DNA of 64,000 nucleotides. Source: an uncultured delta proteobacterium. Its GTDB lineage: Bacteria; Myxococcota_A; Polyangia; Polyangiales; Houyiibacteriaceae. Of this stretch, positions 3,278 to 56,410 are shown piece by piece (the first letter of the stretch is position 1; every line of letters starts with the position of its first letter). The translations under genes and the position numbers were made by a program. The notes under the pieces are model-generated. The model had not been told where the DNA came from. It searched no databases and worked only from the letters and a program-made list of their open reading frames with translations. The stretch covers positions 64,001 through 128,000 of the forward strand of contig CAVOVB010000003.1 in NCBI GenBank assembly GCA_963699755.1, written 5' to 3'.

Positions 3278-6200
3278 TCAAGGCAAAGGGTCGTAGTAAC
3301 CGGCGCCGTCATATAGCGGGACGTTGCAGGGGGAGGCGCCCGGTACTGGCGTGTCGCATAGCGCATAGAGCGGCATTCGGAGCTCGTCCCAAAGGCCCCA
3401 GGCATCGTCCGTGCCCTTCCAGGCTTCGTCGAAGGCTTCGAAATCGAAGATGGTCAGAGGCCCGCCGGCGGATCTCTCCCAGGTTCGGAGTAGGTCGTCG
3501 TACCACTTTGCGTTCACCTCGCTCGCGGCATACTGCTCAATTTCTTGGCTGGGGGCGGTCTGCCGCCACTTCCAGCCGGTCTCGCCGATCACGATTGGCA
3601 ACGACTGACCGATTGTCGATCCATTGAACGGGTAATCGTAGACGGCCTGGTAGTTGTCCTGGGCTTTGACGAGCGAGGCGTTCATCATGGCCGCCGCTCG
3701 CGACGGGCCGGCCGGAACCCCTTCCTGCTTCCAGTCCCATTGCTGGTAGTTGAGGAAGGGGTAGGTATGGATCGACACGAAGTCGATGAGCGGAAGGACG
3801 GTGTCCGGCTTTCGGGCAAACGTGCCGGCGTAGAAGGTGTAGTCATCGTCCGCCGTGACCGGCTGCGTCACGTTGTTTCGGGTCTGGGTGATATAGCCCT
3901 CGAGGCAGTTCAACGGCATAAACGCGGCGAAGAACGATGTCTCGTTACCGACGCTCACCGTGACGACGCTGGAATAGGTATTGGCCAGTTGAATTGCGGT
4001 TGCGACCTGGGAGTCGTTGACCGCGCTCTGGCACAAGTTGGCGGGAGGGCCCGGGGCGAGGCCCTCGAGGAACAGCCCCTGCTGGAAGCGCATTTCAGGG
4101 AAGTTCGCCGCTGCGAGCCGCAAAATCTTCTCGGACACAGGGTCCGCGCCGAACAAGCGCAAGAGGTTGTAGCCGGCGGTCTGCAAGAGGGCGAGGTCTT
4201 CGAGGATGTCGGCGTCACTCGGTATTTCCGGGGGTTGGACCTCTGGCCCCTGCGCCCGGTACGGGCTGTAGTTGATCGCCTTGCCGGTCGTGTAGATGTC
4301 CGGGAGGGGGCGCAGCTCGATACCCGGGCCACCAGCACCACCGCATCCATCTGGACCGAGAGTGATGTTGTCGTAGAAGATCCCTGAGCCGTTGAAGTTC
4401 GTGGCCCTGCTCTGGAAGCCGATCTGCAAGACCTGGCCGACGAGCTCCGGAATGATTGGCAAGCTGATGGTGAACGTATCCCAGGTGTCCGGGAGGTTCG
4501 TCGTATCGACGGGGATGTTGTTGGTCGTGTTCGAGCCCGCGATCGTCTTGATGAACGCTGCCGCGGTCGTGGGCGGGACGATGTTGCCCTTCTTCGCATC
4601 GAAGGTGAACACGATCGTCGTTCCGACATCGCTGGCTACGATGGGGAACTCTTGGAACACGACGGCTTCGATGATGTTCCCGGCCGCGTGATCTGCGTTG
4701 TTGTAGTCGTTGTAGATCGACAGCTGCTGAGCACCTTGCGCGGGACCGCCTTCCCCGACAGCGACTGCAGAGAATGCGGGGCCACCGTTCGGAGCCGGGA
4801 ACGCGAAGTAGTTGTAGAGGAACGTGGTGCCGTCTGGCCCGAACACGTTCGCGCCGACCACCCATCCGTCGGTGGACAAGGAGTTCGGCACAGGCTGGGG
4901 CGGGTCCCCTGGCGTGAGCAACTCGAAGTCTTGCTCGTAGAGGCAAGCAATGACCACTCCCTCACAGACGTTGTTGACGCAGGTCTCGCCGCTCGCGCAC
5001 TGCGCATCGGTGTTGCACTCGACGCAAGCACCCTGGCCGTCGCAAACGCCAGGGCTGCCACCGAGGTCGCAACCCGTGTTGATGCCGTCGTTCTGTGCGT
5101 TGCACGAACCATTGGCCGGGTCACAAACGTCCGTCTGGCACTCGATGCCGTTGTCCGGGCAGGTGTCGGGGGTGCAAAGGCCTTCGCAGACGCCCGCGTT
5201 GCAGGTGCCGGGGAAGCCGCCGGTCGTGCACTGGTTGTTGTCGTTGTTGGTGAACTCGCACGCGCCGGCGACGCAGGCGTTGTCGGTGCAGGCGTTGTTG
5301 TCTTCACAGTCGCTGTTCACGGTGCAAGCGACGCAGTTGCCTTGACCGTCGCAGGTCCCGCCGGACGGCGGTGAGCAGGCGTTGCCCGCTGCAGAGCCCG
5401 GGTCAGGCGTGCAGATCGGTTGGTTGTTCGCATCTGCGGAACACACCTCGGGGCTGCACACGTTGCTCTGGTTGCAGGGGTCAGGCGAGCAATTGTCGAT
5501 GTCCTGACAGTTGTCGTCGCAGAAGATGCCGTCGGGCGGGTCGCAGTCTTCGCCTGGGTCGATCTGTCCGTTGCCGCATCCCGAGGCCACCGTGCAGTCG
5601 ACGGCGATCGTCGAGCGGGCCGCGCCATTGTTGCTGCCGTCGGGCAGAAGGCCGGTACAGCTCGTAAACCCGTCATCGGAGACCGCGACGATGATTTCGC
5701 AGAGCCCGACGCCGGTGCACTCCACGGTGTTGGCCACCGCTTCGCATCCGCTGACCGTCTCACAGCTTGCGGCCGTATTGCCGTTGCTGCTCTGGACGTT
5801 GCCGCACGCGCCTACCGCTTGCACGCCAACCGTCACTTCATCGCCGTCCGGGTCGTAGACCTCGGTGCGCACGTCGACGAGATTGCCGATCGATTGCGTC
5901 GTCGGGGTGACGAGGATCTGCCTGTACTCCGCACACTGGTTGAAGGTGCCGTCCGCACGGACGCCGCCATATCGCGGCGTGTGGATGCAGGCCAGGACCA
6001 CTTCCCCCACAGTGGTCGCGTTGGTGTTGACCACGACCGTGAGCTCGCCTGTGCACTCGGTGTTTCCGGTGTTCGAGGCGGCCGTAAACATGAAGGTGCA
6101 AGGTCCAGCGGGCAGGCCCTGCTTCTCAAAGAGGCCGATGGTGTTCTTCGGCTCCGGTCCTTGCGAGGTGGACGTGTTGATGGTGAACATTTCGGGCGAG

Positions 6201-6576: not shown

Positions 6577-9225
6577 CTATGGAGAGGTGACCGAGACGTT
6601 GTCCCAGTAGGTGTTCACAGTACAGCCAGGGTTGGCACCGCAGTCTGTCTTCAGCTGCAGAGTCACGCCGCCGCTGACGTCAGGGCCCGTTGTCGTGTTG
6701 AACTCATAGGTGACCCAACCCGCCGTCCAATCGTTGGGCGCGTTTGGAAAGAGTGGGGCACCACTGAGGATTTCGGACTTGGATGTGCCGCCGCCGCTGA
6801 GCTCCGAGAAGAACTCTGCGAAGACGACGCCGCCGGGACCCGCGAGAGAGCCGAACAGGTCAAACCGAATGGTGACCGGGCTGTTTGGCGCCACGGTTCC
6901 GATGCCGATGTTGGCCTGCTTCATGAGTGGGAACGAAGGAGGACCCCCGCCGGCCGGAACACTGGCAACCAGGTTGCCCGAGTAGACGCCGCCGTTGGCC
7001 TCTGCCGATGAGGCGGAGCACGTTCCACTGTTCTCTGTACAGAACAGCGTCCAACCGGAGAGATCACCGGTCTCGAAATCGCCATTGATCGTCAGCTCGC
7101 CGCTAGGCTCGGGGCCACCACCACCACCGCATCCATCTACACCGAGGGTGAGGTTGTCGTAGAAGATCCCTGAGCCGTTGAAGTTCGTGGCCCTGCTCTG
7201 GAAGCCGATCTGCAAGACCTGGCCGACGAGCTCCGGAATGATTGGCAAGCTGATGGTGAACGTATCCCAGGTGTCCGGGAGGTTCGTCGTATCGACGGGG
7301 ATGTTGTTGGTCGTGTTCGAGCCCGAGATCGTCTTGATGAACGCTGCTGCGGTGGTGGGCGGGACGATGTTGCCCTTCTTCGCATCGAAGGTGAACACGA
7401 TCGTCGTTCCGACATCGCTGGCTACGATGGGGAACTCTTGGAACACGACGGCTTCGATGATGTTCCCGACCCCGTGATCTGCGTTGTTGTAGTCGTTGTA
7501 GATCGACAGCTGCTGAGCACCTTGCTCGGGACCGCCTTCCCCGACAGCGACTGCAGAGAATGCAGGGCCACCGTTCGGAGCCGGGAACGCGAAGTAGTTG
7601 TAGAGGAACGTGGTGCCGTCTGGCCCGAACACGTTCGCGCCGACCAACCATCCATCGGTGGACAAGGAGTTCGGCACGGGCTGGGGCGGGTCCCCTGGCG
7701 TGAGCAACTCGAAGTTCTGCTCGTAGAGACAGGCCGGGGCCGGAGGGGCCTCACAGACGTTGTTGACGCAGGTCTCGCCGCTCGCGCACTGCGCGTCGAT
7801 GTTGCATTCGACGCAAGCACCCTGGCCGTCGCACACGCCAGGGCTGCCACCGAGGTCGCAGCCCGTGTTGATGCCGTCGTTCTGCGGGGTGCACGAACCG
7901 TCGGCCGGGTCACAGACGTTGGTCACGCATTCCCCGGCGTCGGGGCAGGGGTCGGGGGTGCAAAGGCCTTCGCAGACGCCCGCGTTGCAGGTGCCGGGGA
8001 AGCCGCCGGTCGTGCACTGGTTGTTGTCGTTGTTGGTGAACTCGCACGCGCCGGCGACGCAGGCGTTGTCGGTGCAGGCGTTGTTGTCTTCACAATCGCT
8101 ATCCACCGTGCAGGCCACGCAGTTGCCCTGTCCGTCGCAGGTCCCGCCTGCAGGCGGTGAGCACGCATTGCCCGCGGCAGAGCCGGGATCCGGCGTGCAG
8201 ATCGGTTGGTTGTTCGCATCTGCGGAACACACCTCGGGGCTGCACACGTTGCTCTGGTTGCAGGGGTCAGGCGAGCAATTGTCGATGTCCTGACAGTTGT
8301 CGTCGCAGAAGATGCCGTCGGGCGGGTCGCAGTCTTCGCCTGGGTCGATCTGTCCGTTGCCGCATCCCGAGGCCACCGTGCAGTCGACGGCGATCGTCGA
8401 GCGGGCCGCGCCATTGTTGCTGCCGTCGGGCAGAAGGCCGGTACAGCTCGTAAACCCGTCATCGGAGACCGCGACGATGATTTCGCAGAGCCCGACGCCG
8501 GTGCACTCCACGGTGTTGGCCACCGCTTCGCATCCGCTGACCGTCTCACAGCTTGCGGCCGTATTGCCGTTGCTGCTCTGGACGTTGCCGCACGCGCCTA
8601 CCGCTTGCACGCCAACCGTCACTTCATCGCCGTCCGGGTCGTAGACCTCGGTGCGCACGTCGACGAGATTGCCGATCGATTGCGTCGTCGGGGTGACGAG
8701 GATCTGCCTGTACTCCGCACACTGGTTGAAGGTGCCGTCCGCACGGACGCCGCCATATCGCGGCGTGTGGATGCAGGCCAGGACCACTTCCCCCACAGTG
8801 GTCGCGTTGGTGTTGACCACGACCGTGAGCTCGCCTGTGCACTCGGTGTTTCCGGTGTTCGAGGCGGCCGTAAACATGAAGGTGCAAGGTCCAGCGGGCA
8901 GGCCCTGCTTCTCAAAGAGGCCGATGGTGTTCTTCGGCTCCGGTCCTTGCGAGGTGGACGTGTTGATGGTGAACATTTCGGGCGAGCTTTGCGGAGGCCG
9001 CGGGACGCCCAAGACGGGGTCGATGCCGGCGCACCACAAGGAAACGTTGACTTCGTCGATCTGCTCGTTGGGGCCCGAGGGCGGGGTCGCGAGCGTGACG
9101 GTCATGTCGACATTGCCGATGCCCGCCGGTTCGCTTTGCTCGGAGCTACAGCCTGCGAGTGCCACGGCGAGGGCCGCGCACGTCAGCATCGCTGAGCTCG
9201 CTAATCGTGTTCGTATCAGTGACAT
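6577..9225 (-). CDS. Cys-rich lipoprotein, paralogue of 3278-6421, with a C-terminal carbohydrate-binding-like domain instead of GH17
   Basis: AAGGAG RBS before ATG 9225; lipobox LAGC; C-terminal ELTINGDFETGDLSGW...YWDNVSV typical of CBM4/9-like jelly rolls. Confidence 0.8.
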   Translation of the reverse strand: MSLIRTRLASSAMLTCAALAVALAGCSSEQSEPAGIGNVDMTVTLATPPSGPNEQIDEVNVSLWCAGIDPVLGVPRPPQSSPEMFTINTSTSQGPEPKNTIGLFEKQGLPAGPCTFMFTAASNTGNTECTGELTVVVNTNATTVGEVVLACIHTPRYGGVRADGTFNQCAEYRQILVTPTTQSIGNLVDVRTEVYDPDGDEVTVGVQAVGACGNVQSSNGNTAASCETVSGCEAVANTVECTGVGLCEIIVAVSDDGFTSCTGLLPDGSNNGAARSTIAVDCTVASGCGNGQIDPGEDCDPPDGIFCDDNCQDIDNCSPDPCNQSNVCSPEVCSADANNQPICTPDPGSAAGNACSPPAGGTCDGQGNCVACTVDSDCEDNNACTDNACVAGACEFTNNDNNQCTTGGFPGTCNAGVCEGLCTPDPCPDAGECVTNVCDPADGSCTPQNDGINTGCDLGGSPGVCDGQGACVECNIDAQCASGETCVNNVCEAPPAPACLYEQNFELLTPGDPPQPVPNSLSTDGWLVGANVFGPDGTTFLYNYFAFPAPNGGPAFSAVAVGEGGPEQGAQQLSIYNDYNNADHGVGNIIEAVVFQEFPIVASDVGTTIVFTFDAKKGNIVPPTTAAAFIKTISGSNTTNNIPVDTTNLPDTWDTFTISLPIIPELVGQVLQIGFQSRATNFNGSGIFYDNLTLGVDGCGGGGGPEPSGELTINGDFETGDLSGWTLFCTENSGTCSASSAEANGGVYSGNLVASVPAGGGPPSFPLMKQANIGIGTVAPNSPVTIRFDLFGSLAGPGGVVFAEFFSELSGGGTSKSEILSGAPLFPNAPNDWTAGWVTYEFNTTTGPDVSGGVTLQLKTDCGANPGCTVNTYWDNVSVTSP
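7112..9155. repeat. 2044-bp direct duplication, copy 2
   Basis: Matches 4326-6369. Confidence 0.95.
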
Positions 9226-11556: not shown

Positions 11557-12936
11557 ATGGCGGTTGAAGCCTTTCCCAACGACTTTGTTTGGGGTGTCGC
11601 CACTTCCGCCTTTCAAATCGAAGGCGCCCACGATATCGATGGCAGAGGGCCATCGATCTGGGACACCTATGCGGCGCAACCTGGGTTCATCGAAGACGGC
11701 AGCAACGCCCACGTGGCGTGCGACCACTACCACCGTTACGCCGAGGACATCGCGCTGATGGCGTCCCTCGGCGTGGGCGCCTACCGCTTCAGCGTTGCCT
11801 GGCCGCGGATTGTGCCTGCTGGCCGCGGGGCCGTGAACGTCCCGGGTCTGGATTTCTACGACCGCCTGGTCGATGGCCTTTTGGCGGCAGGCATCGCGCC
11901 CTGTGCCACGCTCTACCACTGGGACCTCCCGCAGGTGCTGGAAAATGAGGGTGGCTGGACCAATCGATCCACAGTTGACGCATTTGTCGAGTTCGCCGAC
12001 GCCGTCACCAAGCGTCTTGGCGATCGCGTGGCGCGCTGGATCACGCACAACGAACCGTGGTGTGTGAGCGTGCTCGGATATGCCCAAGGTGCGCATGCTC
12101 CTGGAAAGAGAAGCTGGCCTGATGCCCTGGTTGCATCGCACCATTTGCTGCTGAGCCATGGGCGGGCTGTGCCCGTGATTCGCCACAACGCGCCTCGAGC
12201 CAAACTGGGCATTACCCTCAACGTGTCCGAGTGCGAGCCCGCGTCGCCGAGCGAGGCCGACCAGAGCGCGGCTCGGCAGTTCGACGGCGAGCTGATCCGT
12301 TGGTTCCTCGATCCGATCTACCTGGGCCGCTATCCGAACGATGTGATCGAGTACCACGAGCGCGAAGGCCGGCTGCCCCGCGGCATGGACTTCGCGCGGC
12401 CTGGTGACCTCGATGAAATCCACATCCCCATCGACTTCTTGGGCGTCAACTATTACAGTCGCGCCGTCGTGCGCAGCGGAAAGATTCCCGAGGCAAACAA
12501 CGAACCGAGAACCATTCCGGTTCCTGACCCTGCCGAGCTGACCGACATGGGCTGGGAGGTCTATCCCGAGGGGCTGACCCAAACCCTGGTACGATTGAAC
12601 GCCGACTACGAGCCCGGCTCATTGGTCGTCACCGAGAATGGCGCCGCGTACGCCACCGGGCCAGGGCCGGACGGGTCCGTGCAGGACATTCGGCGCTGCG
12701 AGTACGTCAAGAGTCACTTGCAGGCCTGTCTTGCGGCGATCGATGCGGGCGTTCCCCTGCACGGCTATTTCCTGTGGTCGCTGCTCGACAACTTCGAGTG
12801 GGCCTTTGGGCTTTCGAAACGCTTTGGAATCGTCTGGGTCGATTTCGAAACCCAAGAACGGATCATCAAGGCGTCAGGGCAGATGTACAGCCGCATCGTC
12901 CGCGCCAATGAGATCGCGGGGGAGCAGGCGGCGTGA
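11557..12936 (+). CDS. GH1 beta-glucosidase
   Basis: FVWGVATSAFQIEG, YRFSVAWPR, TLYHWDLP, HNEP (acid/base), VTENG (nucleophile), WSLLDNFEW. Confidence 0.95.
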   Translation: MAVEAFPNDFVWGVATSAFQIEGAHDIDGRGPSIWDTYAAQPGFIEDGSNAHVACDHYHRYAEDIALMASLGVGAYRFSVAWPRIVPAGRGAVNVPGLDFYDRLVDGLLAAGIAPCATLYHWDLPQVLENEGGWTNRSTVDAFVEFADAVTKRLGDRVARWITHNEPWCVSVLGYAQGAHAPGKRSWPDALVASHHLLLSHGRAVPVIRHNAPRAKLGITLNVSECEPASPSEADQSAARQFDGELIRWFLDPIYLGRYPNDVIEYHEREGRLPRGMDFARPGDLDEIHIPIDFLGVNYYSRAVVRSGKIPEANNEPRTIPVPDPAELTDMGWEVYPEGLTQTLVRLNADYEPGSLVVTENGAAYATGPGPDGSVQDIRRCEYVKSHLQACLAAIDAGVPLHGYFLWSLLDNFEWAFGLSKRFGIVWVDFETQERIIKASGQMYSRIVRANEIAGEQAA

Positions 12937-15900
12937 GAGTCGCAATCGCATTGGTTTTCGTTTTGTGGTCCGCGGTTGCCGCCGCACAGCAGTACGAAGA
13001 GGAAACGGTGGTGCCGACCCCATCGGGCGGCCCCTCGGCGCCAGGCATGGCCCCCCCGCCCGGGGCGCCCCCACCGCGCGGGTCACCGACACGGCCGTCC
13101 GACGACTTCGCACCGCCACCTGCATCCCAACGGCCAGAGGCGCCCCCACCGGGCATGGCGCCAAGCACCCGCAAGACCGCCGGTGCCAACGTCGTCCGGG
13201 TTCACAAAGACGAACGTGGATACCAGCTTCTCGTCGACGGCAAGCCCACGATGGTGTTCGGGATGAACTGGGGATACATGCCGATCGGACAGAACTACAC
13301 CTATGACTTCTGGGGCAAGCCCGACGAGGTGATCATCAAAGCGCTCGATGCCGAGATGAGGTGGCTGAAGGACATGCACGTCAATGTCATTCGGCAGTAC
13401 GCCGGCGGGATGGACGGCGGCCCCCCGCCTCGCTGGATCAAGTACATCTACGAGAAGTACGGCATCTACACGGTTCTCAACCATTCGATTGGTCGCTACG
13501 GCATGGCGATCGACGGTGTGTGGGTGAGCCCGGTCGACTATTCCGACGAGCGCTTCCGTTCCTTGATGAAGGAACAAATCACCGAGCTGGTCGAGGGGTA
13601 CAAAGACACGCCCGGCCTGTTGATGTGGCTCCTCGGCAACGAGAACAACTACGGGCTCTACTGGAAGTCGACCGAGATCGAAGACCTGCCCGAGGCCAAG
13701 CAGGGGGATGCGCGCGCCAGCTTCTTGTACTCGTTGTTCGGGGAGGTCACCGATCTCATTCACTCCCTCGACCAGAACCACCCGGTATCGATTGCAAACG
13801 GCGACCTTGGATTTCTCGACGTGATCAAGCAGGAATGCCCGAACATCGACGTCTTGGGCAGCAACGTGTACCGCGGCATGTCTTCCGGAGACATCTTCGA
13901 GCGCGTGGACAAAGAGCTCGGCCGGCCGTTCATGTACACCGAGTTTGGCTCCGATGCGTTCAATGCAAAGACCGGGCGGGAAGATCAGGTTGCCCAAGCG
14001 CAGTATCTGAGGTCCCTCTGGCAGGAGATCTACGAGCAGAGTTACGGCAAGGGCAGGGTGGGGAACGCCATCGGCGGCATGATCTTCCAATGGAGTGACG
14101 GCTGGTGGAAGTACCAGCAGGAGATCAACCTCGACAAGCACGACACCACCGCGTCCTGGTCGAACCAGGCGTACCTGTCCGACTGGGTCGAGGGCCAAAA
14201 CAACATGAACGAGGAGTGGTTCGGGATCGCGGCGAAGGGGAAACCCAATGTCGATGGGATCTACCCGGTCTATCCGCGAGCCGCGTACTACTTGCTGCAG
14301 GACGCCTTTACGCTCGATCCCTACGCTTCGGACACCAGCATCGAGAAGATCCGGCAGCACTTCGGCAGGCTCGGGCCAAGATCGTATGACGACACGGAGT
14401 CGAGGCTGATGGAGCTCGGCTGGGCGCGCGTCAGCAGACTGCGAATCGACTTCGACACTTTCACTACCGGCGGCCGCCAACTGAATCAACCGTTGAGGAA
14501 TGAGACGCGCTTCGACCATACGGAATCGTTTTATTTTGGCGTCGAGGTGAAGCCGTTTGCCGGGGTGAGGGCGGAAGTCGTCGTCAACGGGCTGGGGAAC
14601 GTGGCCCTAAATCCAATCAACGAGATCTTCTACGAAAACCGCGGCATTCCAGTTGGAATCGTAGATGTGGAAGGTGAGGTTCGAGACCTCTCCGGATTCA
14701 ACCGCTTTCAGGTCTATGAAGCCTCCTTCGACTGGGACAACAAGTACTTCTTGCTCGAGAGCTTCTTTCGCGGCGAGGGGCACTACCACTGGGGCTACGA
14801 GGGAGACTTTTTCGGTCTCTACCCAGAAGTCCACCAGCAGTACGATATCGACATTTACAACGCGAACGCCCCACTGGGCTTCGTGTTCTCCGGGAAGGAC
14901 AAAGTCGACGGCCTCAAAGTCGCGTATGGACCCCAGCTCTGGTGGGGCGCCAACCCAACGGTCATGGCCAAGTACTACCGGATCTTTGGGGACTTCAAAT
15001 TCGCGGTGATGCACCAGGAAGACATCGCCCAACAGGCGACGGGGATTGCGAGCTCGGTGATTCCGCAGCCGAAAAGCCGAAAGAGCACGTTGTACTTCGG
15101 CTACGCGAGTCGTCGGGTCACGCTGGAGCTCGGAGGCATCACATCGCGTTCGAACTTCATCGGCGACCCCTACCAGACCGCGCGCCAAGCAAGCGGGCCG
15201 ACGTACCTGGATTCGGGCTACTACATCCGCAACAACACGGTGAATTTTGCCGATACCCTCGGCGGCAAGGCGAAGCTCACGCTGAACGCGGCGCCCTTCT
15301 TTTGGTACGTGCAGGGAGGCTACCGGGGACTCGTCAGCGATGCCGGGGCAGACCAGACGATGACCATCACCGGCTGGTCGCTCAAGGAGAGCGGCCAGGG
15401 CAATCATTGGGCGGTGTCATCGGGACTTGGGTACTACGTGGGCAAGTTCATGTTGGGGCCCAATGTCTTGGTTCAAAGGCCCCTCGAAGGCCCGCTTCCC
15501 TTCATCCCCGACCTCTTCGATCCCGAAACGGGCATCTACTATCCCGGGGTCAACGGCAGAAACCAGCTCGACGATCCGTTCTGGGTTCGCTCCAACCGGG
15601 AGACGTACGGTTTCGAGCTGCTGTTCGGCTATGACCCGACGCCGGCGACACCCCTGTGGGCGTGGGACAACCTGGAGCGCGAAGACGCCCGCTTCAGCGC
15701 GGCGCTCGACTTCGTGTACAAGATTTTGCCCACGGCCCAAGACTCCGCCGTGGCCATCAACCAAGATCTCATTTTGTTCGCGTTCCAGACCAGCGCGCCG
15801 GCCAGAAACCTTTGGGATGTGAGCCTCCGAACCGTCACCAACTTCACCTACAAGATGCGTTTGGTGAACTGGATCTATGTCGGACAGGGTCAAGCGAACG

Positions 15901-16238
15901 GCGACAGCGCCCGCACCGTGACACGGTTTGGCACCTATGGTTGGTATACGTACGGCACGTTCAACATCAACTATCATCTCAAGTTCAACGATTGGGGGCC
16001 CTACGACTACTACAAGGACTTCAACCTGACGTTCCCGCTGCAAGCCATGCTCGACCTGTCCTACGCGTTGGAACCGCCCGGAATGTATGCGCCGGCGTCG
16101 ACGAGATTCGGAGTGCGCGGGCAGTTCCGGAGTTCCGACCGATTCTCCGGTCGTTACCTGTTTGTTCCCGATGCTGAAGATCCCGGCCGCAAGGGTCGCG
16201 AATGGGAGATCAAAACCTATGTTCAGTTCGTATATTAA
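12933..16238 (+). CDS. Secreted GH-A TIM-barrel hydrolase (GH2-TIM/GH158-like) fused to a probable outer-membrane beta-barrel
   Basis: Signal peptide, Pro-rich linker, LGNENNY and YTEFGSD motifs; C-terminal ~630 aa of aromatic-rich amphipathic strands ending EIKTYVQFVY. Confidence 0.7.
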   Translation: MRVAIALVFVLWSAVAAAQQYEEETVVPTPSGGPSAPGMAPPPGAPPPRGSPTRPSDDFAPPPASQRPEAPPPGMAPSTRKTAGANVVRVHKDERGYQLLVDGKPTMVFGMNWGYMPIGQNYTYDFWGKPDEVIIKALDAEMRWLKDMHVNVIRQYAGGMDGGPPPRWIKYIYEKYGIYTVLNHSIGRYGMAIDGVWVSPVDYSDERFRSLMKEQITELVEGYKDTPGLLMWLLGNENNYGLYWKSTEIEDLPEAKQGDARASFLYSLFGEVTDLIHSLDQNHPVSIANGDLGFLDVIKQECPNIDVLGSNVYRGMSSGDIFERVDKELGRPFMYTEFGSDAFNAKTGREDQVAQAQYLRSLWQEIYEQSYGKGRVGNAIGGMIFQWSDGWWKYQQEINLDKHDTTASWSNQAYLSDWVEGQNNMNEEWFGIAAKGKPNVDGIYPVYPRAAYYLLQDAFTLDPYASDTSIEKIRQHFGRLGPRSYDDTESRLMELGWARVSRLRIDFDTFTTGGRQLNQPLRNETRFDHTESFYFGVEVKPFAGVRAEVVVNGLGNVALNPINEIFYENRGIPVGIVDVEGEVRDLSGFNRFQVYEASFDWDNKYFLLESFFRGEGHYHWGYEGDFFGLYPEVHQQYDIDIYNANAPLGFVFSGKDKVDGLKVAYGPQLWWGANPTVMAKYYRIFGDFKFAVMHQEDIAQQATGIASSVIPQPKSRKSTLYFGYASRRVTLELGGITSRSNFIGDPYQTARQASGPTYLDSGYYIRNNTVNFADTLGGKAKLTLNAAPFFWYVQGGYRGLVSDAGADQTMTITGWSLKESGQGNHWAVSSGLGYYVGKFMLGPNVLVQRPLEGPLPFIPDLFDPETGIYYPGVNGRNQLDDPFWVRSNRETYGFELLFGYDPTPATPLWAWDNLEREDARFSAALDFVYKILPTAQDSAVAINQDLILFAFQTSAPARNLWDVSLRTVTNFTYKMRLVNWIYVGQGQANGDSARTVTRFGTYGWYTYGTFNINYHLKFNDWGPYDYYKDFNLTFPLQAMLDLSYALEPPGMYAPASTRFGVRGQFRSSDRFSGRYLFVPDAEDPGRKGREWEIKTYVQFVY

Positions 16239-16824
16239 GCTCTCTTTGCTGGGGCTCGTGCTGGTCACCGCCGCGTGCGGGGATGACCCCGCCTATGAAT
16301 TCGGCATCCCTACAAGTGACATTCAGTTCGAGCTCTTCAATGTGACCGAGGGGATTCACCCCTCCAAGGTCACCCTCAGCAATCCCCGCAATCCGTTCCG
16401 CAGGATAGTCATCAGCGACGACCAGAAGTTCGCCCTTCAGAACAGTGACAGCAGCGCCGCAGCCTTCTATGCCTGGGCCGCCTTGCTGGCCAAGATCCCG
16501 ATCGGCGAAAATCAGTTCTTCGTGGCTGTCAGCCTCCGTGACATTTACGAGTCCGACGAGCTCGCTGAGGAAGACCGAGAGACCGTCCGACAGATGGCCG
16601 TCAACGGGTTTCAGGCGGTGTTGGACTGCTTCCCGGAATCGCTCTTGTTTGACGCCTCGGGAACGTTTGGCCTGAGGTTCGCGACGCTCGCGTATGTGCA
16701 AATCCTAGAGCTCCAGGGGGTGCCTCAGGGCGACTGGACCTTGGTCGAGGACACCAACGGGAATCCCACTGCGGTACGAAGCACGGGGATCGATACGCTG
16801 GATCGAGGCATCCAATGTTTTTGA
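16219..16824 (+). CDS. Uncharacterised lipoprotein
   Basis: MFSSYIKLSLLGLVLVTAAC lipobox; overlaps the upstream gene end. Confidence 0.75.
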   Translation: MFSSYIKLSLLGLVLVTAACGDDPAYEFGIPTSDIQFELFNVTEGIHPSKVTLSNPRNPFRRIVISDDQKFALQNSDSSAAAFYAWAALLAKIPIGENQFFVAVSLRDIYESDELAEEDRETVRQMAVNGFQAVLDCFPESLLFDASGTFGLRFATLAYVQILELQGVPQGDWTLVEDTNGNPTAVRSTGIDTLDRGIQCF

Positions 16825-17600
16825 AATACCCATGCCTCGTTTGGGCCGTTGGGCTCTTTTTCGTCAGCCTCGTCGGCGGCTGCGCGGCCGATCCGGGAAC
16901 GCCGGACTACTCGAGTCAGGTTGGTATTCGAGAGCGGGTCGCTGGAGTAGCCGTTGACCCCTTTCCGCCCATCGCGCCCGACCCGTACCAGCCTGGCGAT
17001 GAACGGCTGTCGGTCGGCTATTTCTACGAAGGTGGCCGCTCGGAAACGATTCCGATCAACACCGTGACCACCAATTACTTCATCTTCGTCATTGACGAGA
17101 ATACGCCGGTCCAGACGCTGACGTACTCTCAGGACCCATCGATCGACAGGCTCGAAGGACTGGAGTCCACCAAGATTACGCTCAACGACCAATCGTTTTG
17201 GGGTGGCGGCATCATCTGGACGCAGCCCATCGACCTGTCAGACTGGACGACGATGTACGTCGGTTTCAAGTCGAGCGACGACTCGTTCGCACGGTTCAAC
17301 ATCACGCTTCAGTGGCAGGACGGCAGGCCACCGAATGTGCCTCCCCCGGACCCGGCGCGATCGCTCAACCTCGATCCGACGGCGTACGGTTACACCAATG
17401 ACGGGGAATGGCATTTCCTGCGGATCCCGCTTCAAGATGCCATCGATCGTGGTTTTGACCCGAGTAACACCCGCTCGCCCTTCATCATCGGGGGGGGACT
17501 CGTAACCCCGGAGACGTACTGCTGGTCGACAACTTGTATTTCACGAAGGAATGAGGGCGCATGGCGTTGCATCAGGCGCCCTCTGACTTCATGGGTTTGA
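16815..17600 (+). CDS. Lipoprotein with CBM-like beta-sandwich; probable frameshift at G8 (17490-17497), likely true stop at 17554
   Basis: Lipobox VGGC; WGGG..W...DLSDW, YGYTNDGEWHFLRIPL; shifted frame gives TRNPGDVLLVDNLYFTKE-stop. Confidence 0.7.
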   Translation: MFLKYPCLVWAVGLFFVSLVGGCAADPGTPDYSSQVGIRERVAGVAVDPFPPIAPDPYQPGDERLSVGYFYEGGRSETIPINTVTTNYFIFVIDENTPVQTLTYSQDPSIDRLEGLESTKITLNDQSFWGGGIIWTQPIDLSDWTTMYVGFKSSDDSFARFNITLQWQDGRPPNVPPPDPARSLNLDPTAYGYTNDGEWHFLRIPLQDAIDRGFDPSNTRSPFIIGGGLVTPETYCWSTTCISRRNEGAWRCIRRPLTSWV

Positions 17601-17653
17601 AGAGCTCGGGTAAGTGTCATGTTTCGCATAGCGAAACGAGGTAGGAGACGAGG

Positions 17654-18469
17654 ATGAAAAGAACGACATTGATTACGATTCTGTTTGCGGCGCTCGCCGT
17701 CTATGGCTGCTCCGAAGATGAGGGGGGTGGTGCGGCCGGTTCAGGCGGCAGTGGAGGCACAGCCGGTAGCGGAGGTTCAACCGGCAGCGGAGGCATGGCC
17801 GGTGGCGGGGGCACGGGCGGTACCGGGGCATGCGACAGCACAGCCAATGCCTTCATCAAAATTATTGATGGGACCGGTAACCTGACAGCTTCCGCTTCAA
17901 CGGACACGACCGACGCCACGGAAACCTGGGCCCGCGGCACAGTCGAGTTGCTGATCGACGCAGGACTCGCAGGACAGACCGTACAGTTCGGCTTCACTAC
18001 GACGGCCTCGAACTTTGAAGATTCAGGCGTCTTCTACGACAACGTCGAGGTCAACCCAAATACGCAGTACACGTCGAACTTCGAGGATCCCCCGTACGAT
18101 CAGACAGACCCTGACGCATTGGGCGATGACCCGTCAGCTACATGGGGAGACGGATGGGTCATTTACGCCAACGTGTATGAACCGGATGGGACGACCTTCC
18201 TTTACGGCTACAACATCCCCTTGGACCCCGCACCGAACGGCCAGATCCAAGGCTATTCCGCTATTGTGGCGGGGGAAGGCGGTCTCGAGCAGGGCGCCCA
18301 GCAGCTATCGATCTTTAGCGACTACAACAACGTCGCCGAACAGCAAGCAGGGAACCGAATCGAGTCCAATGTCTTCCGCGAACGCACGCTTACAGCGGAA
18401 GATGAGGGCACAACGATCACCTTCGGCTTCGACTTCAAACGCGGCAACATCAACGCAGGCTGCCCCTAG
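17654..18469 (+). CDS. Lipoprotein carrying a circularly permuted copy of the domain found in the two large lipoproteins
   Basis: AGGAG upstream; lipobox VYGC; Gly/Ser linker; blocks AFIK..SGVFYDN then PDGTTFLY..GAQQLSI..KRGNI. Confidence 0.85.
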   Translation: MKRTTLITILFAALAVYGCSEDEGGGAAGSGGSGGTAGSGGSTGSGGMAGGGGTGGTGACDSTANAFIKIIDGTGNLTASASTDTTDATETWARGTVELLIDAGLAGQTVQFGFTTTASNFEDSGVFYDNVEVNPNTQYTSNFEDPPYDQTDPDALGDDPSATWGDGWVIYANVYEPDGTTFLYGYNIPLDPAPNGQIQGYSAIVAGEGGLEQGAQQLSIFSDYNNVAEQQAGNRIESNVFRERTLTAEDEGTTITFGFDFKRGNINAGCP

Positions 18470-18540: not shown

Positions 18541-21500
18541 ATGAATCGACCCTCCGTTCGCAACGATGAGGTAACTGGCGAGTTTTTGACTCTGGCGGGG
18601 GAGCGGTACTACGCGATCCGCAACGTCGACGAAATGGCCCCGTTCTTCGTCAGCCTGGTGTCCAATTCGGATCATTGGCTGTTCATTTCCTCGACCGGGG
18701 GCCTTACCGCGGGTCGGGTGTCCCCGAACACATCGCTGTTCCCGTACATTACAGTCGACAAGATTCACGAAAGCACTCCGCATACCGGCAGCAAGACGCT
18801 CATCCATGTAGTCGAAAACGGGAAACGGCGTGACTGGGAACCCTTCAATCGAGGACATGCCGGGCGGTATTCCACCGACCGCAATCTCTACAAGAACCTC
18901 CTCGGGAACAAGCTCTGCTTTGAAGAGATCAACCACGATCTGCAGTTGGCGTTCCGCTACTGCTGGTTGACCAGCGACATGTACGGATTCGTCCGTCGAT
19001 GCGAGTTGGAGAATCTAGGCGAAACAGACTGCAGCTTGGAGCTGGTCGATGGCTTGCAGAACATTCTTCCGGCCGGGACTCCGCGATTTGCGCAGACGAA
19101 CACGAGCAATTTGGTCGACGCATACAAATGGAATGAGCTCGTCGAAGACCAGGGGCTGGCCCTGTATACGCTCTATTCCGGGATCACCGATCGAGCCGAG
19201 CCCTGCGAGTCCCTCAAGGCCAACACCGTCTTCTGCCTCGGCCTCCATGGGCACAAGGTGCTGCTCTCCGGAGCGCAGCTCGAGCGATTTCGAAGGGGCG
19301 CGCCGCTCACTCAGGAGGTCCACAAGCGTGGCATCCGCGGGGACTATCTCGTCAATGCGTCGCTGACGCTGGCGCCGAAGGCATCGGAGCGCTGGCAGCT
19401 CGTCGCCGACGTCGAGCAGAGTCAGGCGCAGGTGGTGAGCTTGCTCCATGAGCTCGGCGACCCGGCGGCCGTGGCGGAGTCGATCACCCAGTCTGTAGAG
19501 GAGGGCTCCGATGAGCTGGCTCGCATCGTGGCGGGCGCCGACGCATTCCAGGCGACCGCCGAGGAGGCCGTCTCGGCCCACCACTATGCGAACGTGCTCT
19601 TCAATGTCCTGCGCGGCGGTATTTTCGACGATCAGTATCGGGTTTCTTCCCTGGATTTTCGTAGGACCGTCGAGATGTTCAATCGCAAGGTGTTCGTGCG
19701 CCATGAGGGGGCGCTCGGCGCCTTGCCCGAGACGCTCCAGTACCGGGACTTGCTGTCGAGCATCGAGGAGCTGGGCGACCCACAACTCGAGCGGCTATGC
19801 CGCGAGTATCTGCCGATCACCTTTGGTCGCCGGCACGGTGACCCCAGCCGACCCTGGAACGAGTTTGTCATCAAGCTCAAAGACGAGCGAGGCCAGAAGC
19901 TGCTCTCATATCAGGGCAACTGGCGGGACATTTTTCAGAACTGGGAGGCTTTGACGTTCAGCTATCCGGAGTTCGTCGAAAGCGTGATCGCCAAGTTCCT
20001 CAACGCCACGACGGCAGACGGATACAACCCGTACCGAATCAGCAAAGAAGGCATCGACTGGGAGGTCGAGGACCCTGACGACCCGTGGAGTCATATCGGC
20101 TATTGGGGCGATCATCAGATCATCTATCTTCTGAAGCTCCTGGAGCTTTCCCAGCGGTTCCATCCCCAGCGCCTCGTTGCCTTGCTGCGCCAGCCAATTT
20201 TCAGCTACGCCAACGTTCCGTATCGAATCAAGTCGTTCGAAAGCTTGCTCGAGGACGCAAAGAGCACCGTCGTCTACGACGGGGAAGCAGCGGCGCGGAT
20301 CGAACGGCGGGTGGCTGACAAGGGCGCCGACGGCAAGTTGATGCTCGACGCCAATGACGAGGTGTACCAGGTCAATCTGTTCGAGAAGCTCCTGGTGACG
20401 CTGTTGAGTAAGCTCGGAAACTTCGTGATGGATGGAGGCATCTGGCTCAATACCCAGCGTCCGGAGTGGAACGACGCCAACAACGCGCTGGTCGGTCATG
20501 GGCTGTCCATGGTGACGCTCTATTACATGCGCCGATACGTCGATTTCCTGCAGCGTTTGCTGGCGCAGGAGTCGGGTTCAATCAGCATGTCGCGGGAAAT
20601 CAGTGAATGGCTCGGTGAGACCGCGGCTGCGCTGAGGGAGGTGCGACCGCAGCTGAAGGGGCAGGCGGTGAGTTCCCATACGCGGCACCGCTTGCTGGCC
20701 AGGTTGGGAGAGGCCGCGTCGCGTTACCGACAGGCGGTTTACCGGAACGAGACGTTCTCCGGCATGGTCCAGCAACCAGTCTCGAAGGTGCATGACATGC
20801 TGGATGATGCGCTGGCTGCCATCGACCAAAGCATCCGGCAGAACAAGCGTGAGGATGGCATGTACCACGCCTACAACTTGCTGAGCTTGAGCTCCGAGGC
20901 CGTCGAGGTCGAGCACCTCTACGCGATGCTGGAGGGTCAGGTCGCCGTACTCAGCTCCGGGGCCATTGCCCCGGCAGAGGCAGCCGATGTGCTCGAAACC
21001 TTGTTCGAGAGCGAGATGTATCGGGCCGATGTGCGCACCTTCATGCTGTATCCGGATCGTCCGTTACCGGGGTTTCTCGAGAAGAACCGCATCCCCGCCG
21101 AACGATTCGAGTCGATCCCGCTACTCAGACAGATGGTGGAACGCGACGATGAGACCATCGTGTTGCGCGACGAAGACGGCTGCTACCGCTTCAACGCCGA
21201 CTTGCGCAACCGGGGCGATCTGAAGGCTCGGCTCAACGACTTGGTGCCGGTTTATGGCGATGAAACTCAACATGCTCGTCAGGCTTTGCTGGAGCTTTAC
21301 GAAAAGGTTTTCAACCACAAAGCGTTCACCGGGCGTTCCGGCACGATGTTCGGTTACGAGGGATTGGGATGTGTCTATTGGCACATGGTCTCCAAGTTGC
21401 TGCTGGTCGTGCAGGAAAACTTTTTCGTCGCGCTCGCCGTGGCTGCAGACGCAGAAACCTGCCTCCGGCTGGGGCGATTGTACTACCGTGTGCGTGAGGG

Positions 21501-21993
21501 TCTGGGATTCAACAGGAGCCCTGGTGAATTCGGAGCCTTCCCGACCGACCCTTACTCCAACACCCCCAAACACGCCGGCGCCCAGCAGCCGGGTATGACT
21601 GGCCTGGTCAAGGAAGAGATCTTGACCCGCTTCGGTGAGCTCGGTGTGCGTGTGAGCGAGGGTGCAGTGAGCTTCGAATTGGCCTTGTTGCGTGCTCGCG
21701 AGTTTGTCACGAGCCCACAGCCGTTTCGTTTCCTCGACGTCGATGGGAACTGGCAGGAGCTGACGGTTCCCAAATCGGGTTTGGCCTTCACCTGGTGTCA
21801 GGTGCCATTCGTGTACCGGATCGATGATTCCGTCGCCGAGCCGACGGTGACACTGAACCTCGATGATGGCGGTCATCGGACGCTGACGGAACCGATCTTG
21901 CCGACCGAGCTGAGCGCCGAGCTATTCCTGCGCACTGGGCGTATTCGTCAGGTTGAGCTTGTCGTCACAAAAAGCCAGTTGTTTTCTGACTGA
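18541..21993 (+). CDS. GH149-like beta-1,3-glucan phosphorylase
   Basis: 1150 aa; FGRRHGDPSRPWN, YQGNWRDIFQNWEAL, GYWGDHQIIY, RPEWNDANNAL, FTGRSGTMFGYEGLG..YWHMVSKL. Confidence 0.85.
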   Translation: MNRPSVRNDEVTGEFLTLAGERYYAIRNVDEMAPFFVSLVSNSDHWLFISSTGGLTAGRVSPNTSLFPYITVDKIHESTPHTGSKTLIHVVENGKRRDWEPFNRGHAGRYSTDRNLYKNLLGNKLCFEEINHDLQLAFRYCWLTSDMYGFVRRCELENLGETDCSLELVDGLQNILPAGTPRFAQTNTSNLVDAYKWNELVEDQGLALYTLYSGITDRAEPCESLKANTVFCLGLHGHKVLLSGAQLERFRRGAPLTQEVHKRGIRGDYLVNASLTLAPKASERWQLVADVEQSQAQVVSLLHELGDPAAVAESITQSVEEGSDELARIVAGADAFQATAEEAVSAHHYANVLFNVLRGGIFDDQYRVSSLDFRRTVEMFNRKVFVRHEGALGALPETLQYRDLLSSIEELGDPQLERLCREYLPITFGRRHGDPSRPWNEFVIKLKDERGQKLLSYQGNWRDIFQNWEALTFSYPEFVESVIAKFLNATTADGYNPYRISKEGIDWEVEDPDDPWSHIGYWGDHQIIYLLKLLELSQRFHPQRLVALLRQPIFSYANVPYRIKSFESLLEDAKSTVVYDGEAAARIERRVADKGADGKLMLDANDEVYQVNLFEKLLVTLLSKLGNFVMDGGIWLNTQRPEWNDANNALVGHGLSMVTLYYMRRYVDFLQRLLAQESGSISMSREISEWLGETAAALREVRPQLKGQAVSSHTRHRLLARLGEAASRYRQAVYRNETFSGMVQQPVSKVHDMLDDALAAIDQSIRQNKREDGMYHAYNLLSLSSEAVEVEHLYAMLEGQVAVLSSGAIAPAEAADVLETLFESEMYRADVRTFMLYPDRPLPGFLEKNRIPAERFESIPLLRQMVERDDETIVLRDEDGCYRFNADLRNRGDLKARLNDLVPVYGDETQHARQALLELYEKVFNHKAFTGRSGTMFGYEGLGCVYWHMVSKLLLVVQENFFVALAVAADAETCLRLGRLYYRVREGLGFNRSPGEFGAFPTDPYSNTPKHAGAQQPGMTGLVKEEILTRFGELGVRVSEGAVSFELALLRAREFVTSPQPFRFLDVDGNWQELTVPKSGLAFTWCQVPFVYRIDDSVAEPTVTLNLDDGGHRTLTEPILPTELSAELFLRTGRIRQVELVVTKSQLFSD

Positions 21994-22008: not shown

Positions 22009-22542
22009 CTAGCTGCCGCCCATGCCACTGGCGCCGCCCATGCCTGCGCTACCGCCCATGCCTGCGCTGCCGCCCATGCCGCCGACACCGCCCATGCCAC
22101 CGGCGCCGCCCATGCCTGCGCTACCGCCCATGCCTGCGCTCCCGCCCATGCCTGCGCTCCCGCCCATGCCTGCGCTACCGCCTGTCCCGCCGGCACCGCC
22201 CGTACTTCCGCAGAGGTTGGGCGTCGGCTCCGGAATCGGTGTCGTCTGGCAGCTCGTAAGGTTGGAGCAGAAGACGAGCTGGCACTTCTCGCCCTCGCCG
22301 CAGTCCGTCACCGTATCGCACAGCCGAAGGCAGAGTCTGGCCTCTGGCACAGCGTCACCAGGCCTCAGGGGCTCGGGGCTCCCGGTGAAGGTGCAGATCA
22401 ACCCAGACCCGCACTCCCCAGTGGAGCCCGCCGTCTGACAGGTCTCACCGACGCCACCACAGCCGGCCGCGAGGAGCAGGGCAGCAGCGAAGGCAACGAG
22501 AATCAGCACCGTGCGCACGATGGCCCAACTAAACCACAGCAA
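22009..22542 (-). CDS. Small Cys-rich lipoprotein with C-terminal Gly-rich repeats
   Basis: Lipobox AAGC; Cys cluster; (GGSAGM)n tail; start uncertain. Confidence 0.65.
   Translation of the reverse strand: MLWFSWAIVRTVLILVAFAAALLLAAGCGGVGETCQTAGSTGECGSGLICTFTGSPEPLRPGDAVPEARLCLRLCDTVTDCGEGEKCQLVFCSNLTSCQTTPIPEPTPNLCGSTGGAGGTGGSAGMGGSAGMGGSAGMGGSAGMGGAGGMGGVGGMGGSAGMGGSAGMGGASGMGGS
22015..22180. repeat. Coding 18/9-bp tandem repeat (GGSAGM)
   Basis: Repeated CCGCCCATGCCTGCGCT. Confidence 0.85.
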
Positions 22543-50465: not shown

Positions 50466-51215
50466 CTATTTGCCGTGCTCCCAATCGTCGATCTTCACCT
50501 CGATCGGAGTGCTGTCCGCGATTTCACCCAGGATTCGCCGCAGCGCAGCGAGATTGGAGCCTCCAAGACGGAAGAAGAACAAGCCTTTGTCTGTCGCGTT
50601 TGGGGGCATCGTGCAGACTAGCGTTGTGTCTCTAGTCTCCATCACTTTGCAGTAGCGCTGCGAAGCAACTGGAGGTGTGAACCCGAGACTTGCTAAGGCA
50701 GCATCCAGCTGGCTGGAAACGGTGTCTTCATTTCCGCGAAATTCGCCTTCGCAATAATGAGAGGCAGCGACCACGCTGAAGACGAGCGCCGCCGAATAGG
50801 CGATCTCTTCACGCAGCGTCTCGAACAACGGATCAGCCTCGGTATCGTCCAGCGGTCCCACGAGCACCAAAGCATCATCACGGACAGGTTTGTCGAGGTC
50901 GTAGTACCGCGCCGTCGGCGCAAACTCGTCGTCAGACGCCGCGATCAGAAAGAGCCCCGGGGGCGTCTCGACTTGGCTCTCATGGGCTTCCATCACTTGT
51001 CGCAGGTTGAAGCCGTCGAGCATCGTGTCTAGCGGACCGAGATCGTGACCCATCGTGCGCAGGAACCATAGATAGAAGCCTGGCAGTCGCCCACCTGACA
51101 GTCGGTCTAGTCGCTGAATCTCGTCTTCGCTGGCGCCCACGCACCGACGCGGAAAGCCGGGCACCACGCGACTCAGGAACGCTTGAATTTCGCCCTCTGG
51201 ATCTTGCAATGACAT
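50466..51215 (-). CDS. SMI1/KNR4 (SUKH) immunity protein
   Basis: GASEDEIQRL...LPGFYLWFLRTMG; directly downstream of the PAAR-like toxin. Confidence 0.75.
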   Translation of the reverse strand: MSLQDPEGEIQAFLSRVVPGFPRRCVGASEDEIQRLDRLSGGRLPGFYLWFLRTMGHDLGPLDTMLDGFNLRQVMEAHESQVETPPGLFLIAASDDEFAPTARYYDLDKPVRDDALVLVGPLDDTEADPLFETLREEIAYSAALVFSVVAASHYCEGEFRGNEDTVSSQLDAALASLGFTPPVASQRYCKVMETRDTTLVCTMPPNATDKGLFFFRLGGSNLAALRRILGEIADSTPIEVKIDDWEHGK

Positions 51216-52433: not shown

Positions 52434-52446
52434 CTTAAATCACCTT

Positions 52447-53493: not shown

Positions 53494-53521
53494 ACCCGCC
53501 TCCGGTGGTCAGGTCCCATGC

Positions 53522-54526: not shown

Positions 54527-54536
54527 AACGACGCCC

Positions 54537-55901: not shown

Positions 55902-56410
55902 TAGTTGATCCGAACCACGCCGCCCTTGATGCGATTGACCCCCTTGGAGCGTGTTTCCACGTGGGTACCCCTCACCACGATGCGGCCGTTGCGCCGCAAA
56001 GTGATGCTGGCTTCGCCGCAGCGAAGGACGATTTCATCTTTGGCGTCAAAGACGACGCTTCGCCCATCGACCACGGCCTCGAGCTTACCTTCAGATCGCT
56101 CCTGTTCGACTTCCAAAGCGCCGTGGCGTTCTTGAAGCAGACCTACGATGATCGGCCGGTCGGAGCGCTCGGCTTCGAAGACGAGCAGTACTTCCTGACC
56201 CCGGTCGACCGCGGCCGCGGTGGCGCTGGCGTCGAGCGCCACGGTCGTCCGCGCGGCGATTGGCCCGTGCGGGTTCGACGCGTGATCGACGATCGGACCT
56301 TCGCGCTCGCTCCAGCCCACCAGCCTTCCAACCCGGTTTCCGGTCAGCTTCACCGGGCGCGAGAAATCAATCTCGAGCAGTTCAAGACCCTTTTTTACCG
56401 CCTTAGTCAT
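55901..56410 (-). CDS. DUF6484-like protein
   Basis: VLLVFE...RPIIVGLL, IVLRCGEASITL. Confidence 0.75.
   Translation of the reverse strand: MTKAVKKGLELLEIDFSRPVKLTGNRVGRLVGWSEREGPIVDHASNPHGPIAARTTVALDASATAAAVDRGQEVLLVFEAERSDRPIIVGLLQERHGALEVEQERSEGKLEAVVDGRSVVFDAKDEIVLRCGEASITLRRNGRIVVRGTHVETRSKGVNRIKGGVVRIN

Follow-up and report, generated by a model that had tools for sequence, protein, structure and literature searches.

A permuted jelly-roll lipoprotein beside the beta-glucan genes of an uncultured delta proteobacterium, and the probable origin of its cysteine pair in a loop of the unpermuted domain

The window, by which we mean the whole 64,000-nucleotide stretch of DNA analysed, carries on its forward strand a gene (17654..18469) for a lipoprotein of 271 amino acids, P0001, in which the two halves of a domain stand in swapped order. 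The gene is defined by its open reading frame, by BLASTP and by homologues of the same order at 84% and 75% identity, rising to 91% in locus L119. It begins with a signal peptide (17654..17710) ending in Cys19, a residue that follows a hydrophobic stretch, is kept in the orthologues from the same gene slot and sits in what we take to be a lipobox pattern, so the peptide is likely, as a putative assignment from sequence, to be a lipoprotein anchor; similar signal peptides are found on the same-slot genes of loci L004, L013, L014, L032, L119, L123, L128 and L154. A Gly-rich tether built of 18-nt repeat units (repeat family D2; 17711..17830) then leads into half B (residues 60–134, 17831..18055), which contains Cys60, the pattern STANAFIK...GF...FYDN and five predicted strands, and which corresponds to the C-terminal half of the domain in its other order. 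The junction between B and A (residues 130–139, 18041..18070), where the old termini are joined through a short peptide, lacks cysteine by comparison of copies and is spanned by contig X18 (record 9). Half A (residues 135–271, 18056..18466) follows with the pattern YxxxFE...GW...APN...GGxxQG...SDY...KRGNIN and seven predicted strands, and ends in AGCP, which includes Cys270. The halves were delimited by BLASTP and structural models, all these features lie on the forward strand, and the only cysteines of the protein are residues 19, 60 and 270.

The genome holds this one copy in the B-A order and three paralogues in the A-B order, at about 50% identity. Two of the paralogous domains, located by BLASTP and Pfam and for the first also by a model, are in the window on the reverse strand: one (4343..4945) in the 1047-residue protein P0002, with a GH17-like domain after it (GH17 at E 7e-5, short of the curated cut-off), and one (7129..7731) in the 924-residue P0003, followed by a CBM4-like domain (CBM_4_9 E 0.018, a weak match). 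The third paralogue lies some 10 kb upstream of the window; it is a stand-alone lipoprotein that shares the tether of P0001, is in A-B order and is bounded by cysteines. BLASTP of P0001 against P0002 and P0003 gave two offset diagonals, the result that the earlier note had expected of a dot-plot: residues 135/139–266 align to the start of the domain (52–53% identity, E 5e-33 and 2e-32) and residues 62–136 to its end (45–47%, E 4e-15 and 4e-16). The circular permutation claimed in that note is thereby confirmed and is, in our judgment, practically certain; the coexistence of both orders in one locus is likewise supported. Its further statement that cysteines occur only at the two ends holds for the A-B domains, which run from C493 to C693 in P0002 and from C541 to C741 in P0003 with no inner cysteine (in P0002 the loop between A and B is three residues long and free of cysteine), and for Cys60 and Cys270 of the P0001 domain; P0001 as a whole also has Cys19 at the end of the signal peptide, which the note does not mention. 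The N-terminal regions of P0002 (3278-6421) and P0003 (6577-9351), both on the reverse strand, are nearly identical (96%) and include Cys-rich repeats, and their last domains differ (GH17-like and CBM4-like), which is apparently a recent duplication with a C-terminal swap.

P0001 lies in a recurring gene order. In relatives this runs GH1, GH2-like, two unnamed lipoproteins, the slot occupied here by P0001, GH149 and then a convergent Cys-rich module gene. The window has the GH1 beta-glucosidase and the 1101-residue GH2-like protein together at 11557..16238 (forward strand, Pfam), an unnamed lipoprotein that marks the upstream side of the slot at 16815..17600 (forward strand, from locus comparison and contigs), the GH149 beta-1,3-glucan phosphorylase directly downstream of P0001 at 18541..21993 (forward strand; NCBIfam NF058639 at 1704.7 bits against a cut-off of 1150, and PDB 6HQ6 at E 0), and at 22009..22542 on the reverse strand a small lipoprotein with the Cys-rich module and a Gly-rich tail of 18-nt repeats, without either form of the domain and with no NCBIfam match. 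Relatives keep this module downstream of GH149, whether or not a domain is fused to it. The GH2-like protein (12933-16238) combines a TIM barrel with a long C-terminal part that ends in aromatic residues as an outer-membrane barrel does; judged by its sequence it could be a fused glucanase-transporter, and it has homologues in 40 of 76 loci. Another unnamed, helical-looking lipoprotein (16087-16824) is conserved between the GH2-like gene and the slot and matched neither Pfam nor NCBIfam, and in L136 the homologue of the 16815..17600 lipoprotein is fused to two A-B domains. The glucan cluster continues upstream of the window (locus L001, 3908-19996) with GH5, two GH16, three GH17-like, a GH2-like, a CBM9-like and a sugar MFS gene, and also with a gene that from the look of its sequence we take to be PEP carboxylase-like. 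Elsewhere in the window, 51246-58874 presumably holds genes of a type VI-like or contractile injection module of myxobacteria; we take these to include a VgrG-like gene (56655-58874) and a PAAR-like gene with a C-terminal extension (51246-52433), with an SMI1/KNR4-like gene at 50466-51215.

The slot upstream of GH149 holds an A-B domain in L004, L006, L009, L011, L013, L032, L071, L136, L154 and L155 and a B-A domain in the window, L014, L119, L120, L128 and L123, and the slot genes of both orders carry homologous signal peptides. Interchange of the two orders within one slot suggests that they do the same job. Many relatives have a second copy, in B-A order, fused to the Cys-rich module, which stands alone in the window, L032, L120, L121, L128, L154 and L155. 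L032, L154 and L155 have the layout of the window but an unpermuted domain with a CPC loop in the slot, and for this reason they are the best models of the ancestor. We considered a simple inversion between the Gly-rich repeats flanking GH149 as the source of the window layout and rejected it: it predicts a reversed GH149, which was seen only in L123, as expected there from inversion between the Gly-rich tethers. Between the two tethers the repeats are short, at 22 nt and 82%.

Could the unusual order be a product of assembly? The window does contain at least one indel error close by, at 17489, and the contamination estimate of the genome is 9%. However, B-A order was found in 71 of 637 distinct copies, which come from many assemblies, and independent contigs cross both junctions of P0001: X18, from an independent run, spans the B-to-A junction (17850-18130) with 0 differences, and X1 covers the other (17157-17889) with 0 substitutions. 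The swapped order is therefore no assembly artefact, and the chance that P0001 is a chimera is close to negligible. DNA nearly identical to the window is present in sediment runs, where a contig from an RNA library counts as evidence of presence and not of expression. At 17489 one extra G in a run of G was seen in three of three DNA runs, which makes it likely that the window carries a sequencing indel there, one base missing from the run, and that the true stop of the 16815..17600 lipoprotein lies near 17554, as in its homologues.

Neither P0001 nor the A-B domain matched any Pfam or NCBIfam family, and no PDB sequence matched the domain, the PDB sequence matches obtained being to Gly linkers and FlgD tails only. 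The ESM Atlas returned unnamed clusters first, with weaker leads to DUF642 and CBM_4_9; CBM_4_9 matches somewhere on 2 of 89 member proteins (best E 0.0032), Pfam Glyco_hydro_16 does not match P0001, and none of the 89 members matched the Stig cyclase (HpiC1-like) family in Pfam. A profile search gave 419 clusters (50% identity) at E<=1e-30 and 1036 at 1e-3, the latter partly through appended tails. The 637 distinct copies, pooled from fetched proteins and loci, comprise 566 in A-B order and 71 in B-A order. The records that hold A-B copies are titled Planctomycetota, Krumholzibacteriota, Eisenbacteria, Acidobacteriota, Gammaproteobacteria, Myxococcota and others, and PEP-CTERM or FlgD-type tails are frequent on these copies. 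The B-A order was met in Myxococcota-like loci alone: among the 76 genome loci, which come from the best 80 of 183 stretches, it is confined to L002–L014 and L016, whose titles are Polyangiales, Sandaracinaceae, Myxococcales or delta proteobacterium, with L005 titled Gemmatimonadota but carrying a GH149 80% identical to that of the window. On this distribution the window probably comes from a member of the Polyangiales. No record among these 76 is titled Bacteroidota. A genome search with query A1 gave a tally of 23/41 that was inflated by Gly-rich matches, and this was left out. No description of the family was found in the literature searched, with the limits that an unnamed family is unsearchable by name and that subscription papers fell outside the scope. 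The proposal that this is a new family is thus upheld by the lack of Pfam, NCBIfam and PDB sequence matches and by the beta-glucan gene context.

Structural models of the two orders (A-B: 89 rows, pLDDT 94; B-A: 23 rows, pLDDT 82.5) share 12 strands, which pair one-to-one in permuted order. Strands 127-136, 139-147, 156-163, 172-181 and 189-198 of the A-B model correspond to 7-14, 20-27, 36-43, 52-59 and 69-77 of the B-A model, and those from 3-5 to 110-119 correspond to those from 82-84 to 197-206. With Foldseek the A-B model gave 149 matches at E<=1e-3, with Stig cyclases near the top. With VIA it matched 5x7o (Z 13.2, rmsd 3.1, 145 residues aligned), the porphyran-binding CBM 8xmz (Z 12.8), CBM16 (11.4), CBM4-2 (11.2) and CBM22 (11.1). 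The B-A model gave 0 Foldseek matches at E<=1e-3 against the 149 of the A-B order, so the permuted order escapes an ordinary structure search. Its best VIA match is an engineered permuted glucanase, 1ajk (Z 8.9, rmsd 3.9, 145 aligned), and the next unrelated entries, ConA-type lectins, follow at 5.4; a wide VIA search had a top Z of 5.5, graded unspecific by the tool. Residues 211-214 of the B-A model, which include Cys270, have pLDDT under 50. The models support a CBM-like jelly roll in both orders, cut in a different loop, as had been proposed: the A-B model matches CBM jelly rolls, the B-A model matches a permuted one, and all 12 strands pair once the order is permuted.

The function that we predict from the sequences and their surroundings, non-catalytic binding of beta-1,3-glucan, is probable, because 48 of the 50 loci of at least 12 kb adjoin GH149, GH16 or GH17 genes. 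A homologue of one of these was found in those 48 and in 61 of all 76 loci, against 3 of 273 tiles (20 kb each) from the genome of P0001; the loci are from the best 80 of 183 stretches, the queries for neighbours were taken from this cluster and related loci are not independent of one another. The cluster genes are GH149, GH1, GH2-like, GH5, two GH16, several GH17-like, MFS and ROK. Conserved in both orders are W92, W168, Y186, Y224, Q111, D223, E237, E243 and the YDN and FE motifs, the two motifs resembling what we take to be the structural calcium site of CBM jelly rolls. A domain of this kind would act as a surface or periplasmic binder, holding laminarin-type glucan for GH16/GH17, GH149, GH1 and MFS uptake, and both orders would do so alike. 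It could instead be a catalytic or purely structural jelly roll, to which the Stig cyclases and a flagellar sheath protein among the Foldseek matches point, together with the acidic residues D129, E144, D223, E237 and E243 kept in at least 88% of copies of both orders and the fact that most family members are stand-alone secreted proteins. We consider this unlikely: in several proteins the domain is appended, often in tandem, to GH16 or GH17 catalytic domains in the manner of an accessory module, the top VIA matches are CBM-type domains, the resemblance to Stig cyclases is structural only and no Pfam enzyme family matched the 89 members.

The cysteines of P0001 find their counterparts in the loop between A and B of its unpermuted relatives. 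In most A-B copies three residues connect A and B. The loop has two cysteines in 94 of 566 copies, none in 470 and one in 2, the proportion with two being enriched by one search seeded with a loop-Cys protein (27 of 394 before that search). The two-Cys loop is an insertion, typically GNIN-DPxDPL-C-P-C-x-STA, with 1 residue between the cysteines in 54 copies, 4–7 in 33 and 12 in 6; one more copy has adjacent cysteines of another kind. Loops starting N/D-[DSNE], matching the GNIN at the end of the B-A domain, make up 93 of the 94 two-Cys loops against 16 of the 470 without cysteine. P0001 ends GNIN-AG-C-P and its domain starts C-D-STA, the two sides of such a loop, so that Cys270 and Cys60 correspond to the loop positions. 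Both cysteines are present in 63 of the 71 B-A copies, neither in 3, and 5 copies are cut off or masked. An insertion near DDP...WG, counted in an earlier set of copies, occurs in 23 of 40 B-A copies, 3 of 27 loop-Cys A-B copies and 2 of 365 plain A-B copies, and by summed score P0001 has its nearest A-B copies in L154, from the same slot and with a CPC loop, and P0019, also with loop cysteines, at 220 bits each.

The earlier note had the terminal cysteine pair of the A-B domain moved to the new ends, or we might add arising there anew after permutation. P0001 and all three A-B copies of the genome are indeed bounded by cysteines, which invites this reading, but the same two cysteines stand in the intact loop of the 94 A-B copies, 9 A-B copies combine a loop pair with a terminal pair, L154, L032 and P0019, the nearest A-B relatives, carry the loop pair but lack at least one terminal cysteine, and no cysteine was found at the joined old ends in any of the 71 B-A copies. 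As those 9 copies have both, the two pairs are separate features. Relocation is not supported and we regard it as very improbable; the pair of P0001 was very probably inherited from the loop of the A-B form. A disulfide between Cys60 and Cys270 is predicted and likely, given that the cysteines are paired, the protein is secreted and the connection is short in the model. It is not required for the permuted order, because three B-A copies have no cysteine pair at all. Such copies without either cysteine, in L016 (8492-10603 and 18544-20595) and L191, end in GNIGQ and are joined to long Cys-rich repeat proteins; they can serve as natural controls for what the disulfide does. Separately, P0023, P0036, P0109, P0237 and their kin have two adjacent cysteines (CC) in the SDY loop with an insertion after them, which constitutes a third cysteine feature of the domain.

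Permutation by duplication predicts tandem intermediates, and duplication with truncation is named a highly probable route, in the parts of PMC3320104 and PMC13552848, respectively, that are drawn on here. The search for such intermediates that the earlier note had proposed did find them. Tandems of A-B-A-B were present in 8 of 31, 19 of 141 (plus 2 triples) and 41 of 195 proteins (plus 5 triples) in successive protein sets. P0298 is such a tandem with CPC in both loops, L136/P0302 is one with a Gly-rich spacer in the slot of P0001, P0163, P0307 and P0313 are A-B-B-A chains, and a Gly-rich B-to-A junction is kept in 8 of 71 B-A copies.

Trees were built on dereplicated subsets (76 rows from 434 copies and 65 from 637) with the plain A-B rows chosen by hand. 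In the 65-row tree P0001 belongs to a group of 18 rows, 12 of them B-A and 6 loop-Cys A-B with no plain A-B copy (support 94/91, just under the threshold at which branches were starred); the root is weak (54/34) and P0298 is not close to the B-A group. A first tree, which put P0001 with the plain A-B copies P0131/P0136, was superseded, since columns under 60% filled had been dropped and the diagnostic insertion was lost with them; the position of P0001 thus shifted between trees. On the 76-row set an AU test on the joined halves rejects all B-A copies as one clade (p 0.0019), so the history was not one clean event; half A alone also rejects it (p 0.025) and half B does not (p 0.59). The copy L014_14254 is a chimera with a Gly-rich spacer, its half B 76% identical to the main group and its half A 71% to a second group, which shows that recombination alone can break monophyly. 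Taken together, the rejection and the chimera leave either one permutation followed by swapping of halves or repeated cuts at the same loop.

We read P0001 as a probably membrane-anchored, swapped-half copy of a predicted jelly-roll domain that probably arose by tandem duplication and trimming in a loop likely to have held two cysteines already, which would now staple the new ends, and that is predicted to bind beta-1,3-glucan for the neighbouring enzymes; we give this reading a probability of roughly 0.62. From a widespread A-B domain with a three-residue loop, one lineage would have gained the insertion GNIN-DPxDxx-C-x(1-12)-C-x-STA, after which a unit of Gly-rich tether and domain would have duplicated in tandem. 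Loss of the first A and the last B would then have joined the tether directly to the second loop cysteine and placed the stop after the first, and the leftover tether between B and A would have shrunk to 1–4 residues in most descendants. Later, halves and whole cassettes were probably swapped between paralogues through the Gly-rich repeats.

The direction could be the reverse, with the loop-Cys A-B copies being B-A copies permuted back and the C-x(1-12)-C loop a scar of the fused C- and N-termini. The spacer of 1 to 12 residues does look like a shrinking linker, the root of the tree is weak and several loop-Cys copies are unresolved with respect to B-A copies. We nevertheless find it improbable, since loop-Cys A-B copies occur across much of the tree in records titled Acidobacteriota, Planctomycetota, Pseudomonadota, Actinomycetota and Myxococcota while B-A copies are restricted to Myxococcota-like loci, the tallies of domain order contain no B-A-B-A tandem, and no spacer between the cysteines exceeds 12 residues. 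Another route to the same product would be a circular copy of the DNA that was excised between Gly-rich repeats, opened by a break in the loop and then put back in. Many B-A copies are Gly-rich on both sides and lie in the tail of a Cys-rich module gene, the eight with Gly-rich junctions would suit this route, and the GH149 of L123, reversed relative to the slot, is consistent with rearrangement between Gly-rich repeats. Against it, tandem A-B-A-B proteins are common, that of L136/P0302 with its Gly-rich spacer being in the very slot of P0001, and the Pfam scan of 13 window proteins showed no integrase or mobile-element gene beside P0001. The product is the same as from tandem duplication; we hold the circular route to be quite unlikely.

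More plausible, if still doubtful, is that the same loop was permuted at least twice independently, once through the Cys loop and once without cysteine, and not once with later swapping of halves; this would alter the history of the family and not the origin of the cysteine pair of P0001. The AU rejection of a single B-A clade speaks for it, as do the starred branches, which require at least two changes, and the two copies of L016 and that of L191, which end in GNIGQ and start without cysteine. However, P0036, with which those Cys-less copies group (98/97), has both cysteines and a similar junction, suggesting loss; the L014_14254 chimera shows how recombination can produce the same signal, and half B does not reject one clade (p 0.59).

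Natural circular permutation of CBM beta-sandwich modules is already in print: CBM36 is the permuted partner family of CBM60. The CBM60 work (Montanier et al. 2010, PMID 20659893, cited in PMC13552848 and PMC4444583; PDB 2xhh) describes, as far as those citing accounts go, a natural permutation in a carbohydrate-binding beta-sandwich like the one here. The present family has no PDB sequence match, and 2xhh reaches only Z 3.2 against the B-A model; its own features, set beside what those accounts give for the CBM60 pair, are two orders about 50% identical in one locus, intermediates and a loop cysteine pair at the cut. The engineered permutants of the Bacillus 1,3-1,4-beta-glucanase (1ajk, 1ajo, 1cpn, 1axk) are the best matches of the B-A model and open the jelly roll at a comparable place, but they are artificial, catalytic GH16 enzymes at 8% identity, and P0001 has no GH16 match in Pfam. 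Galactose-binding-domain jelly rolls of the CBM4/16/22/35 type share the fold of the A-B model (Z 10–13) and the accessory position on glucanases; they differ in identity (13–19%) and size (about 145–160 against about 200 residues here), with no Pfam family at threshold.

Similar in presumed role are CBMxx and CBMyy, two families that bind laminarin, later numbered CBM102 and CBM103. According to the portion of their description used here (bioRxiv 10.1101/2023.09.07.556657), they were found in marine Bacteroidota beside GH16 and GH149, CBMxx being a beta-sandwich that also occurs, rarely, in Myxococcota. Both sets would be new beta-1,3-glucan binders, here by prediction, beside GH16 and GH149. 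The profile of the present family has no PDB match, and the phyla in which the family occurs are Myxococcota, Planctomycetota, Krumholzibacteriota, Eisenbacteria and others, none of the 76 loci having a Bacteroidota-titled record. The textbook cases of natural permutation, saposin/swaposin and concanavalin A/favin, as outlined in PMC3320104, are unrelated in sequence, and concanavalin A is permuted after translation whereas P0001 is permuted in the gene; the tandem intermediates predicted for such cases were found here. In its predicted workings the domain resembles beta-sandwich CBMs and known cases of permutation by duplication, and it is a member of no profile-defined CBM family tested. What is new is an unnamed family with a close and nearly complete series of intermediates in which the cut lies inside a Cys-bounded loop; a permuted CBM pair as such was known.

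Natural permutations have been argued mostly from distant pairs, and here the two orders are about 50% identical and occupy the same slot in close relatives. The tandem, mixed-order, scar-bearing and double-Cys-pair forms allow a test of whether a disulfide already in place makes permutation easier. It is tentative, and somewhat less than an even chance in our view, that this is a large and so far uncatalogued beta-1,3-glucan-binding family, that a loop pinned by a disulfide would pre-close its fold for cutting there and rejoining at the old ends, Gly-rich tether repeats would recombine orders and half-domains between slots, and every intermediate would survive in sediment bacteria. As the domain lacks a Pfam, NCBIfam or PDB entry and is a marker of beta-glucan loci among uncultured phyla of sediments, it is a candidate for a new CBM family, and may point to laminarin turnover outside the Bacteroidota.
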